A DNA stretch of 64,000 nucleotides from an uncultured Ignavibacteria bacterium (GCA_964520555.1 CAZFNN010000001.1:393761-457760); one strand, 5' to 3'; shown: positions 28,951 to 58,108, numbered from the stretch's first letter. Numbers and translations: made by a program. Notes: generated by a model from the sequence alone, not told the origin.

Positions 28951-29694
28951 TTAGATCGTCAGCACGTCGCTGCGCCGCACCCATCCCTTAAGCTGATTGG
29001 CGAACAGTCCCAGATAGTAGTCCGCGCGGCTGTCCAGAATCTGAAATAACAGCCCCTCATGCGCCTCAAATTGCACCTCAAAGTCGGTCCCCGGCCCCGA
29101 CAGCACATCCGTTTGCTCGACGACCACAACCCCCTCCTCCACCAGATAGTTGCTCTTCAAGGTCCAGATCATCGCCCCGACGCAGATCGCCGTCACCACC
29201 CCCAGCGTGATCATCCAACCCGTCGGCGTCCGCTGCAATTTGCCCGTTCGCTTCAGCGTCAGCAGCAGAAACAGCCCGCCAAAGGCCAGCAGGCTGATGA
29301 GAAAGTACTGGTTCGGCGACAGCGTATTCAGCACCGAGCCGATCTGCGACTGGAACAACGCCTTGTCCGAGGCCTCGATCTTGTCCACGGTAAACAACTG
29401 CGCGAACTGAAGATTGGCCTTGATGTCCTCATCTTCCGGCGCCAATCGCTGCGCCCGGCGGAAATTTGCGATCGCATGCCCGAGCCGCCCCGACTTGTAG
29501 TACGCGCAGCCGGCATTGTAATAAAGCTGCGGCGATGCGTAGCCGCGATCGATGATCTGCTGCAGCGACTGTGCCGATTCGGAAAACTTTCCCTGGTCGT
29601 AAAGGCTGATCGCAGCGCGAAAATCGTCCTCCACGCTGGCGCGCGCCGCGCCGACACCGAGAATCAGCAGAAGGACAATCACGATACGCTTCAA
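28951..29694 (-). CDS. batE: BatE-like protein (TPR + TM + SH3-like)
   Basis: TPR repeats (…AISLYDQGKFSESAQSLQQII…YYNAGCAYYKSGRLGHAIANFRRAQRL…), a TM segment, then a C-terminal SH3-like region. The probable TTG start at 29694 overlaps the batD stop by 4 nt. The track ORF extends to 29796. Confidence 0.55.
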   Translation of the reverse strand: MKRIVIVLLLILGVGAARASVEDDFRAAISLYDQGKFSESAQSLQQIIDRGYASPQLYYNAGCAYYKSGRLGHAIANFRRAQRLAPEDEDIKANLQFAQLFTVDKIEASDKALFQSQIGSVLNTLSPNQYFLISLLAFGGLFLLLTLKRTGKLQRTPTGWMITLGVVTAICVGAMIWTLKSNYLVEEGVVVVEQTDVLSGPGTDFEVQFEAHEGLLFQILDSRADYYLGLFANQLKGWVRRSDVLTI

Positions 29695-31532
29695 CGCGTT
29701 TTCTCCAGATCGATGATCAACTGCCGCGCCTCCTCCCACATCCGCTGCATCTGCGCCGCTCGCGCTCCGCCCGGCGCAAAACGGCCGAAGTCGCACTGCT
29801 CCAACAGCCTCAACATCTTCTCGATGAGCGTGTCATTCTCCTTGCCGGCGGCAAACGCCTTGATCTGGTCGGCCGTCAGTCCGAATCCCGGCAAATTATA
29901 ACGATCGGCAAAATAATCAATCAGAGATCGGCTGATTTCGGTATAAAACGCGTCCGCCGCGTTCCCGTTAAGATGCTCCTTGGCCCTGGCCAGCCGACCC
30001 TCGGCCATCTTGCGCGCCTGCTTCAGGCGCCGGAATCCCTGATCCGACTCCAGCTTCTCCCGCCGGCGTTGCTGCTGTGCAATCACCACATACGCCGCAA
30101 TCGGCAACGCATACAATAAGGCGAACAGCGGGTTCATCACCAGCGGCTTGCTCCGCTGCGAATTCAAGTTACCCACTTCCGACTTGAGATAGCGGATATC
30201 CTTTGCTCCCGCCGTCGGATCGATTCGGTTGCTCTGCAAGTTCTGCATTTGCGACGTGAACCGGTCCGTCGACGGCGCCACCTCCAGCCGCACCGGGTCG
30301 GTACTGATGATCTTGTACGCACGCGCCGCCGGATCGAAGTACGAAAGACTCACCGATGGCAGCACATACGTCCCCGCCCGCTTCGGAATGAATACCTGCT
30401 CGTAGGTCTTGGTCCCGCCAATCCGGTAATTCACGCGCTCGACGTTTTCCGAATCACCCGCCTGATAGGAACGAAAATCAGCCAATTGCGGCGGCTCCGG
30501 CAGCGTCACCGTCTTGATGTTGCCAGTGCCGGAAATCTTGATCGTCATCGTCACCGGCTCGTTCGCTTCAACCTTGGTCTTGTCTACCGTGGCACTGATC
30601 CGGTACTGCCCGACTGCCCCGGAAAAATCGGCCGGCTTGCCGGCCTCCGGCAGCGGCAGCACCACGACCCTGATCGGCTCGGAAGACAGCTTGACCGACT
30701 TGGTTTGACCGAACACTCCGAAATCGTCGAAGATCGAAAAGGGATCGCGATTGCGCCGGCGCTCCTGCACCAGACAGGTGATTTCCGCCGCGCCAATCGT
30801 CTGCACTCCCGGTCCGGTTGGAAACAAGGCTGTCTTGAGTTCCTGGACGCGATAATCGCGGCCATTGACCGTCTGAAAATCGGTCTTCTGCTGTCCCAGG
30901 TCCTCCACCCAGAATCCCGTCTTGTCGGGCGGCTTGTAATCGGGATTCTGCAACAGCTCGATCGCATTGTAAAACCGCAGGGTCAGCGTGGTTTGCTCGT
31001 TGACGTAAACCGTATCGCGATCCAGACTGGTGCGGACAAACAGATCATCGCGCGAAATCCCCGTCTGCTGCTGTTGCTGCTGTTGCTGTTGCCGCCGCTG
31101 CGCGTTTGGATCGCTTGTCCGCGCTTGTTGCGTCGCCCGCGCCGGAAACACCTGCACGACCTGCGTCTCTGTCGTATAGCGCACGCCGTCAATATCGAGC
31201 GCAAACGCCGGGATCACCAGTCGGCCGCTCTTGTTCGGCGCCAGCCGGAATACATACCTTTTCGATTGCTGCGATTGCCCGTTCACCCAGGTGAAACTCT
31301 GGCTCGTACCGGAGGAGTAAACATTGAAGTCCTGCAGATCGGCCAACTGGATGTTCGGATAGCGGCTCACCTCGCCCGAAAGCTCGATCGTATACTCGAC
31401 CGTCTCATCCTGCGTCATCTGGCTCTTGTCGACCCGAGATGCGACATTCGCCTTCCCGGCCCATATCGGTCCCGCCGCCAGGACAACAACGGCAAAAACG
31501 ACGCCAACTACCCGCTTCATCTCGCCTACCAA
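29691..31532 (-). CDS. batD: BatD-like protein
   Basis: 613 aa. Signal peptide, extracytoplasmic beta-domains, one TM, and a C-terminal cytoplasmic helical domain ending …LLEQCDFGRFAPGG…. Contains a poly-Q tract (RRQQQQQQQQQT). Confidence 0.6.
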   Translation of the reverse strand: MVGEMKRVVGVVFAVVVLAAGPIWAGKANVASRVDKSQMTQDETVEYTIELSGEVSRYPNIQLADLQDFNVYSSGTSQSFTWVNGQSQQSKRYVFRLAPNKSGRLVIPAFALDIDGVRYTTETQVVQVFPARATQQARTSDPNAQRRQQQQQQQQQTGISRDDLFVRTSLDRDTVYVNEQTTLTLRFYNAIELLQNPDYKPPDKTGFWVEDLGQQKTDFQTVNGRDYRVQELKTALFPTGPGVQTIGAAEITCLVQERRRNRDPFSIFDDFGVFGQTKSVKLSSEPIRVVVLPLPEAGKPADFSGAVGQYRISATVDKTKVEANEPVTMTIKISGTGNIKTVTLPEPPQLADFRSYQAGDSENVERVNYRIGGTKTYEQVFIPKRAGTYVLPSVSLSYFDPAARAYKIISTDPVRLEVAPSTDRFTSQMQNLQSNRIDPTAGAKDIRYLKSEVGNLNSQRSKPLVMNPLFALLYALPIAAYVVIAQQQRRREKLESDQGFRRLKQARKMAEGRLARAKEHLNGNAADAFYTEISRSLIDYFADRYNLPGFGLTADQIKAFAAGKENDTLIEKMLRLLEQCDFGRFAPGGARAAQMQRMWEEARQLIIDLEKTR

Positions 31533-57200: not shown

Positions 57201-58108
57201 GGCCCCGCCTGCGACTCCCAGAAATCGCCGCCGTCGCCGTAAAACATCACATAGTCGTCGTTGCCAAAATTGCCGTCCGCCTCGCCCGCCACCACAATCG
57301 CAACCTCCATGATTGAATCGCGCGGCGCCGCGTTCGACACCGGCAGCGGCTTGCCGCCGGCAGAAAACAACCGCAGCGTCCGCGGGTCGACCCCGTTTAT
57401 ACTCGCTCCTGCGTTCGTCAAATCACTGCGCGTGATCTTGTACAAGCCGCTCTCGGTTACGGCGATTCGCACCCACGATCCGCTCAGCGCGAACGGATTA
57501 TATACTGCCGCGCCGGCGCTTCTTAGCAGCGGCTGCGTCCATGCCGCCGCCTGTTCGGCGTTCACGGCCAACTCATCCAACAACCGGTCCAGCGGGCCCG
57601 CCGCGCGCACCTCACGCAGTTCCGGCTCGCTTCCGAATGCCAACTCGATCTCTGCCGCCGTCACTTCGTGGTACGCGCCGCCGCGCTGCGCTTCGACCGG
57701 AACCACAACCTTGCCAACCCAACGCCCACGAATTAATACCGGCGCAACGACGGACACTTCCGCCACACTCTCGGCAACGGTGTTCTCTACCGATCGCAAC
57801 GCCTTGTTGCCAACGGTGACATTGGCTGAGACCAAGCTTGAATTATTGCGATTGGGGGAGTAGAAGCAGATGACGTAGGCCTCCCGCGCGCTGCCGTCGG
57901 CCGCGGCGATCGAAGTCCTTTCTGCGGTCACGACCCGGCTCACCCCTGCTGCGGCCGCGTCCATTTGCCCGTCGGCAGCCAGACGCAGACTCAAGCCCTG
58001 AGCGCTGCTGCGGACGACCGCAACCTTGGCCTCGTAGGCTTCGCTACTGCTGTAAAGGGAAAGAACTGCGCAGAAAATAAGAGCGGTGAAACGACGGGAA
58101 AATGTCAT
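54248..58108 (-). CDS. porU: Peptidase C25 (gingipain-family) cysteine protease with T9SS CTD; PorU-like (T9SS C-terminal signal peptidase) candidate
   Basis: 1286 aa. Signal peptide. The C25 catalytic dyad context is …LIVNYTGHGNQNLW… (His) and …PLIFNASCSIGFFD… (Cys). The C-terminal …CYPNPVAEACEFSYVLS…ILKLFTLSGLEIWS…GVYLFQLSARAA…GKLVVLK is a T9SS CTD. Its position immediately upstream of the PorV-like gene mirrors porU-porV synteny in Bacteroidetes. Confidence 0.55.
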   Translation of the reverse strand: MTFSRRFTALIFCAVLSLYSSSEAYEAKVAVVRSSAQGLSLRLAADGQMDAAAAGVSRVVTAERTSIAAADGSAREAYVICFYSPNRNNSSLVSANVTVGNKALRSVENTVAESVAEVSVVAPVLIRGRWVGKVVVPVEAQRGGAYHEVTAAEIELAFGSEPELREVRAAGPLDRLLDELAVNAEQAAAWTQPLLRSAGAAVYNPFALSGSWVRIAVTESGLYKITRSDLTNAGASINGVDPRTLRLFSAGGKPLPVSNAAPRDSIMEVAIVVAGEADGNFGNDDYVMFYGDGGDFWESQAGPAYVRHPYSDRNVYYLAIGGSFPEPAKRMGTVSGDRDDVIDTVSRTIDYLHFEEEAQFSQSGDDVFDYYNWYWGLAGDLTLFVNLPQPAPQSVNRFRIKTTRQTFNLKLNNFDIPRDSSVGLVHYYTSNRLTNGLNQFSIDYAFNDGYTDFLEVELERDLNLPASGQLHFFGRRDGNAHAYRIAGSFDTPIVVDVADVQAPVLVAPVQVDGNDLYIDQDASAEVQPVLAVSNLAALKTPFAIVATQVDDIRAESNQADFIIITHDNFYANAVDYAAYRQTRDGLRVRVVRISDVYAQFSGGRVDPVAIRDFLRYTHEHWSGARPSYCLLAGDGVYDFRNNLGTGGVNYVPPYIVAGDETVSDENFVYLDSLYDLDADDSYPSDRGVDMVIARWAVKTAAEFETVAAKIKAYDEAADAGNWRNIITLIADDEKHPQSTLPEVFHTQDTEVLAGTIIPPGFVLDKIYGIAYPLGAASEKPEMREAIIRAINAGRLIVNYTGHGNQNLWADERIFRRVQDIPRLNNAARLPLIFNASCSIGFFDNPQSEGMAEDLLRYANGGAVGTISATRLVYSRPNFEFNKAGMTQLLSDKNYTIAEAVYVTKLLRQGVAGVGDNDRKYIYMGDPLSRLALAPNQIDFVTFAPDSLVALTVTDLAGEIQDKDGVKQSDFDGEATISVFDNQRTRTFVIPPFTVSYAEYGPEIYRGRVAVRDGDFNLKFVVPKDISYGGQEARISGYAASATSGAAGVIYPIAIGSINKETVDSTGPTVSVYFAGNPQLSNGATLKQNTEVTVELYDSLGINLTGEIGHGIELTIDERPEFAFEVTDSFTYNADSYQRGEATLVLPVLEDGPHQLKVKAWDSANNSSLATVDFNVNAAAGIEITELLCYPNPVAEACEFSYVLSADADHVILKLFTLSGLEIWSKTGLPASRGAHQGIAWDGRDDDGDRPANGVYLFQLSARAASAGASGDDNSKAVATGKLVVLK

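Follow-up and report, generated by a model that had tools for sequence, protein, structure and literature searches.

Here we analyse a stretch of 64,000 nucleotides (nt) deposited under an uncultured Ignavibacteria bacterium (GCA_964520555.1 CAZFNN010000001.1:393761-457760), hereafter the window, in which an unbroken minus-strand gene array of 29,158 bp runs from the ATG of porU at position 58108 to the batE stop codon at 28951 and places genes of the type IX secretion system (T9SS) and the outer membrane next to a Bat/MoxR operon. The array had been proposed in a first-pass annotation, and its uninterrupted co-directional course is confirmed by the listing of open reading frames (ORFs) and by a gene model, just as profile matches bear out the domain content ascribed to it (Bat/MoxR, UbiA, Omp85, proteases and PorU/PorV-like proteins). 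Its details had to be revised: instead of the 23 genes claimed, the ORF listing and a greedy gene model find 19 long minus-strand ORFs between the two ends, and gene calls made independently on L081, an identical Logan contig, and on relatives return the same 19 genes; the junctions, described as gaps of 0-35 nt or overlaps of 1-4 nt, range from -26 to +48 nt; and the co-directional run, taken to stop at batE, goes on through 12 further minus-strand genes down to 9451. As to lineage, all taxon-named matches for PorV, BatD and the barrel protein g07 listed below are Zixibacteria, and the AcrB efflux protein of the window falls in the same 90%-identity cluster as MCC6963888.1, whose annotation names candidate division Zixibacteria; some GTDB-representative metagenome-assembled genomes (MAGs) with the same array carry the Ignavibacteria label. 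The 19 genes are as follows (aa, amino acids; pLDDT, predicted local distance difference test; pTM, predicted template-modelling score; compared loci and contigs carry L numbers):

54248-58108, minus strand: g01, T9SS sortase PorU, 1286 aa (NF033707, 710 bits, cut-off 420; Peptidase_C25, PF01364, E 2e-83)
51076-54213, minus strand: g02, PorV-family barrel with a propeller/helical insertion of ~720 aa, 1045 aa (NF033709, 250 bits, cut-off 90)
47922-51062, minus strand: g03, M6-like metalloprotease with FG-GAP repeats and a type-A sorting domain (NF052323, 305 bits, cut-off 600)
47055-47897, minus strand: g04, DUF5683-like exported protein with a C-terminal Phe, kept in L071, L086 and L174
46315-47055, minus strand: g05, DUF5683 protein, paralogue-like partner of g04, also ending in Phe (PF18935, 28.5 bits)
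45369-46277, minus strand: g06, NHL-repeat protein with a lipoprotein-like signal (PF01436, E 5e-14)
42101-45394, minus strand: g07, unannotated protein predicted as a giant beta-barrel, 1097 aa (AlphaFold2 model, pLDDT 84, pTM 0.73)
40494-42104, minus strand: g08, Omp85-family protein with POTRA domains and a ShlB/Omp85-type barrel (orthologues match PF01103 and PF03865)
39652-40497, minus strand: g09, archaeal DGGGP-synthase-type prenyltransferase of the UbiA family (PF01040, E 3e-26)
38763-39605, minus strand: g10, extra BatD-domain membrane protein before MoxR (PF13584, E 1e-10)
37728-38714, minus strand: g11, MoxR AAA+ ATPase (AAA_3, PF07726, E 5e-66)
36847-37725, minus strand: g12, DUF58 protein (PF01882, E 1e-77)
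35380-36846, minus strand: g13, multi-pass membrane protein, PMT_2/GT-C-like (PF13231, 22.9 bits, under the cut-off)
34446-35396, minus strand: g14, membrane protein with a BatD domain (weakly matching the LB_053 family of Leptospira; conserved in the Bat loci of other lineages)
33460-34446, minus strand: g15, BatA (PF07584 and VWA, PF00092; best match NF047508)
32379-33413, minus strand: g16, BatB (VWA, PF00092, and the BatA N-terminal domain, PF07584; best match NF047506)
31526-32395, minus strand: g17, BatC (TPR)
29691-31520, minus strand: g18, BatD (PF13584, E 1e-45, three stretches)
28951-29694, minus strand: g19, BatE (TPR and transmembrane segments)

The first nine genes (g01-g09, hereafter Module A) most likely form an outer-membrane set built around the processing of T9SS cargo. 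Judged by its equivalog score and its Peptidase_C25 domain, g01 is a bona fide PorU. Its neighbour g02 is a barrel of the PorV/PorQ family by both profile (NF033709) and structure (Foldseek match to 8GL6_F, E 4e-16, target TM-score 0.61), and with 187 bits it stays under the cut-off of the PorV equivalog NF033710, which is set at 250. The PorV N-terminal motif of g02 occupies residues ~25-70 and the remaining barrel residues ~790-1045; between them, the AlphaFold2 model (pLDDT 83, with the PorV chain 8GL6_F as its top PDB match) shows an insertion of propeller blades and helical repeats which, in structure comparison of the model, resembles the tandem propeller sensor domain of BT4673. It is tempting to speculate that g02 may unite PorV/PorQ-like and PorZ-like roles. 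PorV proteins with such an insertion (850-1055 aa) are common in Zixibacteria, and the PorV of L086 is plain, with 331 aa. The third protein, g03, ends in a T9SS sorting domain of type A (TIGR04183, 36.6 bits, cut-off 23; PF18962, 39 bits, cut-off 27) and is likely, by this signature, a T9SS cargo; its best NCBIfam model is named 'inactivated' M6-like, yet the HEFGH motif at residue 277 is intact, and given this motif the protein may be catalytically competent.

The second part of Module A contains its most distinctive member. For g07 we found no significant Pfam or NCBIfam match and no sequence relative in the PDB, and its all-beta model with ~35 long strands has only generic fold matches there (BtuB, TbpA and SprA, with query-normalised TM-scores of 0.23-0.26); the model thus confidently predicts that g07 forms a giant beta-barrel in the outer membrane. 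The penultimate Phe is nearly invariant in its family, and in Zixibacteria, L084 and L086 its gene always precedes an Omp85/POTRA gene and usually follows an NHL lipoprotein gene; g08, in turn, is always encoded right behind a large exported protein. The prenyltransferase g09, an inner-membrane enzyme encoded behind g08, reaches 150 bits with NF009521, under the cut-off, and its closest PDB relative is 6M31 (E 5e-24). The pairing of an Omp85 gene with a DGGGPS-like UbiA gene (39652-42104, minus strand, in the window) recurs in Zixibacteria, in Ignavibacteria/Melioribacteraceae and in a Bacteroidia MAG, and in the loci of this pair (L008, L013, L015, L019, L020, L027, L041, L059) the stop and start codons often overlap or nearly abut. 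Among the components of the array, three stand out as most novel: the family of g07 barrels, the NHL-barrel-Omp85 triad, which is conserved, and the PorV that carries the ~720-aa insertion.

By its domains, the second half (g10-g19, hereafter Module B) is a canonical MoxR-first Bat operon with the lineage-specific genes g10 and g13 added. MoxR (AAA_3 and lid) is followed by DUF58, as expected of a Bat operon, with a gap of 2 nt; both BatA and BatB combine a double-transmembrane N terminus with a VWA domain; TPRs are present in g17 and g19, and PF13584 occurs three times in g18. The MoxR gene starts with GTG, with a conserved GGGAGATAAAG before it. The SH3 domain seen in BatE of some species gave no match in g19 at E<=0.01. 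The extra gene g10 is Zixibacteria-specific: it is present in L071, L082, L083, L091 and L093-L095, was not detected in L092 or in the other phyla sampled, and showed no paralogy to g14 in pairwise BLAST (E = 2). A still narrower distribution applies to g13, a subclade-specific insertion between DUF58 and the BatD-like gene that is absent in other phyla and has no PDB relative by sequence. Its orthologue in L083 matches PF13231 without the below-cut-off mark, and at its position L091 has a gene split in two, L071 a TPR/SurA_N-like protein and L092 an unknown protein of 215 aa. Published work describes Bat operons as starting with MoxR and reports Bat phenotypes, namely aerotolerance and resistance to oxidative or thermal stress, for Bacteroides, Riemerella and Francisella (PMC11834572); such stress phenotypes are not reported for Leptospira bat (PMC3557215).

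From g01 to g19 the 18 junctions, computed with start codons backed by independent gene calls, measure 34, 13, 24, -1, 37, -26, -4, -4, 46, 48, 2, 0, -17, -1, 46, -17, 5 and -4 nt; the -1 between g04 and g05, for example, is a single nucleotide shared by a stop and a start codon. Similarly short junctions are found in L071, L082, L083 and L174, and the longest and most variable among the relatives are g05-g06 (4-99 nt) and UbiA-g10 (34-119 nt). A common strand, short or overlapping junctions and conservation in relatives, all of which are expected of an operon, are therefore found together in the array. Upstream of porU lies a spacer of 519 nt. Downstream of batE the first gaps are 87 and 127 nt, later junctions range from -17 to 41 nt, and a 611-nt gap then precedes a 1872-aa protein with a C-terminal domain (CTD) and two more genes; the genes before that gap encode an LPG_synthase_TM protein with a flippase-like domain (d1), CorA, TetR, a resistance-nodulation-division efflux trio, BshC, BshA and BshB. 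No junction in the array exceeds 48 nt, and the same holds for 8 of the 12 in the flanking run; the array is thus somewhat tighter than its surroundings, but not uniquely so. Moreover, about 33 of the 44 long ORFs in the window lie on the minus strand and the GC skew is negative throughout, which accounts for part of the co-directionality of the array.

The search for transcription signals was informative mainly at the two ends of the array, at which the following features stand out:

58290-58390, minus strand: promoter-like region in the porU spacer (TTGACA at 58385; TTGACA-19-TATTCT at 58320-58290)
28899-28927, minus strand: predicted sigma-70-type promoter, TTGACA-17-TATCTT, at the 3' boundary of the array, 36 nt before d1
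27847-28863, minus strand: d1, LPG_synthase_TM protein (flippase-like domain), always beside batE in Zixibacteria, with a predicted promoter of its own

A generic promoter and terminator scan gave site numbers not above those in shuffled sequence, and a stricter TTGACA-based pattern, whose totals are likewise at chance level, is informative only by position and cross-genome conservation. On both counts the motif after batE stands apart: across deep Zixibacteria branches it keeps its place, in L090 (12579), L091 (12623), L092 (12619) and L094 (20325), hence in five genomes with the window, as TTGACA-17 followed by TATCTT, TATGTT or TAATTT, preceded by an A/T-rich stretch, and the surrounding spacer diverges. 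We believe that it is very probably the real promoter of d1, and its conservation indicates that canonical sigma-70 motifs are in use in Zixibacteria; the signature could serve to delimit transcription units and as a promoter model for these uncultured bacteria. At the other end, the 570-nt spacer before porU in L174 holds a terminator-like hairpin and then TTGACA-17-TAATAT. Inside the array, a motif scan of the window and of six close relatives, L001-L003, L082 and L094 among them, found no TTGAC box with a good -10 element, and no terminator rose above chance, with the proviso that such scans can miss weak or alternative-sigma promoters; no significant hairpin follows batE (z-score 0.25), and Rfam and tRNA scans of the window gave no matches. 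Other relatives do have internal motifs, namely one in L083 (inside g07), two in L071 (one of them in the Omp85-UbiA gap) and two in L092, one before g14 and one (TTGACA-16-TATTTT) in the spacer between UbiA and MoxR. The co-transcription which the first-pass annotation had read from the spacing is therefore plausible for the window's clade, in which a single long transcription unit may well span the array: a comparable motif is missing from its interior and its order is kept in Zixibacteria. The promoter-like site in the L092 spacer speaks against it in that deep Zixibacteria branch.

Comparison of loci, read from tblastn maps and gene tables, shows that more than nine assemblies contain Zixibacteria-type contigs with the complete gene order, at BatD identities as low as 35-39%. 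It can be followed from g03 (in L002 from g06) to BatD in L001-L003, whose MoxR is 88-91% identical to that of the window; from g03 to the flippase-like gene in L094 (MoxR 86%); from PorU to BshC in L082/L090 (BatD 76%); from Omp85 to BshA in L091 (BatD 54%); from PorU to BatC in L083 (g07 46%); and from g03 to BatE in L071 (MoxR 67%, BatD 35%). In L174 (PorV 39%) the stretch from PorU to Omp85 is seen, with ~12.4 kb left downstream, and we infer that its Bat part follows, because an ENA contig with the same length of 41,599 nt has an entry for a BatD (P0248) of 39% identity. The short contigs L093, L095 and L097 have UbiA and/or a BatD-like gene before MoxR. In the RBG-1-like L092 (BatD 37%), g07-Omp85-UbiA lies beside the MoxR-to-BatE genes and a flippase-like gene, with a spacer of ~830 nt that holds an 84-aa ORF between UbiA and MoxR. 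Wherever a Zixibacteria-type locus includes the junction, Modules A and B are neighbours, so the expectation that the blocks of the array stay together holds across the sampled Zixibacteria, with the L092 spacer as a qualification, and fails elsewhere.

Outside this lineage the two modules occur apart. L086, with 69.6% GC and proteins 23-32% identical to those of the window, encodes PorU, its plain PorV, an M6 protease with a CTD, two small proteins, NHL, g07 and Omp85, and the genes that follow are those for LigA, a helicase and urocanase, with neither UbiA nor Bat there. L084 has NHL-g07-Omp85 only, Ignavibacteria and Melioribacteraceae loci have the Omp85-UbiA pair only, and one Bacteroidia locus has g07-Omp85-UbiA. 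Solitary g07 homologues occur in Flavobacteriales, in Flammeovirga and in another Bacteroidota-like contig; P0182, P0187 and P0191 proved to be such solitary g07-like genes, in Bacteroidota-like contexts. Alignments of g07 contain no stretch conserved well enough to seed a metagenome census. For Module B we searched metagenome contigs with MoxR as seed and kept the 42 loci with a MoxR below 70% identity and at least 3 kb of upstream sequence. BatA, BatB or BatD lies downstream of MoxR in 26 of these 42 loci from other lineages, tblastn with the window proteins detected homologues of g01-g10 upstream of MoxR in none of the 42, and flippase-like or Bsh genes were found downstream in none of the 22 with enough downstream sequence. 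Linkage of Bat with T9SS genes is thus seen in Zixibacteria-type loci only and does not recur in independent lineages. The first-pass annotation had named scattering of the blocks in related genomes as the outcome that would speak against it, and such scattering is what we find outside Zixibacteria (L086 and the census) and, in part, within them (L092).

One locus from a Gemmatimonadales MAG (L080, positions 1-13200) has a Bat operon with BatB::BatC and BatD::BatE(SH3) fusions, followed by MutL, MiaA, BshA, a DGGGPS-like UbiA, BirA and CoaX. A link between Bat, bacillithiol and UbiA, considered on the basis of this locus, was rejected because MutL and MiaA intervene and other Bat loci lack Bsh or flippase-like genes downstream; the proximity of Bat to BshA and UbiA in L080 looks coincidental.

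Set against systems that are already described, the parts of the array are of known kinds, such as the Bat operon and PorU/PorV, and their arrangement, with lineage-specific additions, is new. Module B shares the order MoxR-DUF58-BatD-like-BatA-B-C-D-E and the domains of the Bat/MoxR-MRP operons of Bacteroides fragilis, Riemerella, Francisella and spirochaetes, and the same core occurs in the about 26 census loci, but the operon of the window differs by its extra BatD-domain gene before MoxR, by the GT-C/PMT_2-like gene after DUF58, by the lack of a long spacer before MoxR and by abutting an outer-membrane/T9SS module. Like the PorU-PorV pair of Porphyromonas gingivalis and Flavobacterium johnsoniae, that of the window has a PorU above the equivalog cut-off, a barrel that matches solved PorV structures (8GL6_F, 6H3I_F) and a CTD-tagged protease beside it; unlike in these organisms, the PorV-family barrel falls under the PorV equivalog cut-off and carries its large insertion after the first strand, and the pair precedes a conserved set of five more outer-membrane genes that is undescribed for the model systems. 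The NCBIfam trio of PorU2 (NF052324), PorV2 (NF052325) and the inactivated M6-like protein (NF052323) matches all of the first three genes, but with scores far under the cut-offs (152 against 450, 41 against 325 and 305 against 600 bits, respectively), and in contrast to that trio g01 is a standard PorU and g03, with HEFGH retained, is not obviously inactivated. With the Omp85 superfamily (BamA/TamA, and TpsB proteins such as FhaC/ShlB), g08 shares its POTRA domains and C-terminal barrel; it reaches only 49 bits against a BamA cut-off of 297, and its partner g07, unlike the partners of TpsB and TamA, is neither a TpsA-like beta-helix nor TamB-like but itself a predicted giant barrel. Finally, g09 has the archaeal DGGGP synthase 6M31 as its nearest solved relative and DGGGPS models as its best NCBIfam matches, but is bacterial, stays under all equivalog cut-offs and has its gene behind one for an Omp85 protein. 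In full-text literature we found no paper that pairs 'Zixibacteria' with 'type IX secretion' or 'T9SS', and none that mentions PorU, PorV, 'gene cluster' and Omp85 together.

The genes downstream of the array provide a control for how much tight packing means in these genomes. In L090 and L091 the downstream order is the same as in the window, with the flippase-like gene, TetR, the efflux trio, BshC and BshA (CorA in L090 only); L092 has lost the efflux genes but still has BshCAB and the flippase-like gene nearby, BshC overlaps AhpC instead, and SelA and SelB follow BshB. The AcrB-BshC junction, which measures 10 nt in the window and is kept in order in L090 and L091, is an overlap in L091. 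This and similar junctions show that tight conserved junctions also join functionally unrelated modules in Zixibacteria. The block itself (17192-26709, minus strand) consists of TetR, OEP, MFP and AcrB and then, 10 nt on, the bacillithiol genes BshC, BshA and BshB.

Taken together, these comparisons suggest that the array is probably a Zixibacteria-specific juxtaposition of two modules that are independent elsewhere. The Bat operon would have gained a BatD-like gene before MoxR in Zixibacteria and a GT-C-like gene after DUF58 in the window's subclade. The tight packing of both modules in the window's clade makes it most likely that they are expressed from the 519-nt porU spacer as a single long transcript or as a small number of overlapping transcripts; transcription may read on into d1, to which the conserved promoter would add further input. 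The adjacency itself most likely derives from shared envelope-related regulation together with a phylum-wide head-to-tail packing of unrelated modules, and it does not show that T9SS or surface-protein assembly depends mechanistically on Bat. The suggestion of the first-pass annotation that Bat proteins act in envelope or surface-protein assembly is possible in itself, but the adjacency does not single out Bat as an assembly factor, since the modules are separable, a spacer parts them in L092 and unrelated genes are equally tight and syntenic.

Several points weigh against this reading. The adjacency of Modules A and B survives at 35-39% BatD identity, in loci in which CorA or TetR and the efflux genes are lost or replaced, and adjacency of such depth could be a sign that linkage is under selection. 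Where the client of a MoxR-VWA pair is known, the genes of the pair usually lie beside that of the client, which would speak for a functional reading. Weak or alternative-sigma promoters within genes can be missed by our consensus scans, and very divergent upstream analogues in other lineages would be missed by a census made by tblastn with the window proteins. In addition, Leptospira genes downstream of bat deletions are reported to be still transcribed despite operon-like spacing (PMC3557215).

The last point would fit an arrangement of several ordinary operons (for example porU-M6, g04-UbiA and g10/moxR-batE) lined up one behind another on the leading strand of a genome that is compact, with promoters inside upstream coding sequence and an order conserved through slow rearrangement only. 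Such an arrangement would explain the strand bias and uniformly negative GC skew, the continuation of the run, equally tight, through unrelated genes that are themselves syntenic, and the variability of the g05-g06 and UbiA-g10 junctions, the latter widening to the ~830 nt before MoxR in L092; Leptospira offers a precedent for independent promoters in a tight bat cluster. We nevertheless consider it unlikely: the sigma-70 motif that marks intergenic promoters is absent within the array in the window and in L001-L003, L082 and L094, several genes overlap by 1-26 nt, as is typical of translational coupling, and the link between the modules is kept at a depth at which CorA and the efflux neighbours are lost.

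Alternatively, the MoxR/VWA Bat system of Zixibacteria could be an envelope chaperone or assembly platform for PorU/PorV, the giant barrel and the metalloprotease, with co-expression under selection. Several of the observations that count against independent operons, namely the adjacency in all junction-showing loci even where other neighbours changed, the short or overlapping junctions and the lack of an internal consensus promoter, would follow from such coupling, and g10, a Bat-domain gene right after UbiA, extends Bat towards Module A. However, L086 keeps Module A intact without an adjoining Bat operon, Module A is missing upstream in 42 of 42 loci from other lineages, the modules of L092 lie apart with a promoter-like site between them, and the flippase-like, efflux and bacillithiol genes are just as syntenic and tight. 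To our knowledge, spirochaetes lack a T9SS. Bat homologues have nonetheless been reported across the Spirochaetes (PMC3557215), and although the location of Bat proteins would suit such a role, in that they are membrane-anchored and, in Borrelia BB0173, have the VWA domain on the periplasmic side (PMC5700661), we regard a coupling of this kind as rather improbable. Least of all do we expect that the PorU-to-Omp85 octet is a self-contained, undescribed T9SS-associated outer-membrane machine with Zixibacteria Bat as its dedicated assembly chaperone, a long shot in which the barrel of 1100 aa could act as an anchoring platform or as an alternative translocon and which, if true, would supply the long-missing client of the Bat proteins.

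A real, selected link of Bat to defined outer-membrane proteins would give a concrete client hypothesis for the Bat/MoxR-MRP system, but since a single uncultured phylum has the link, and each half stands on its own elsewhere, it is a lead and not evidence. What we consider durable is, first, a conserved T9SS-adjacent outer-membrane gene set, among whose members are a PorV with its large insertion and giant barrels of a new family; second, a conserved tight packing in Zixibacteria genomes that also links plainly unrelated functions; and third, the simple, conserved promoter signature by which units in Zixibacteria can be delimited.

Some further genes of the window deserve mention. Upstream of the array and divergent from it lie an LRR/fn3 protein and a DUF3857 protein (59075-62305, plus strand), and between these genes and the porU spacer is a 100-aa ORF without family (58628-58930, minus strand). 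At the other end, downstream of the 611-nt gap, 9451-10152 (minus strand) encodes a 233-aa protein with a dockerin domain, and 10962-16580 (minus strand) the 1872-aa exported protein, whose C-terminal domain is of the FlgD_ig/CHU_C type and which may be a further T9SS cargo.

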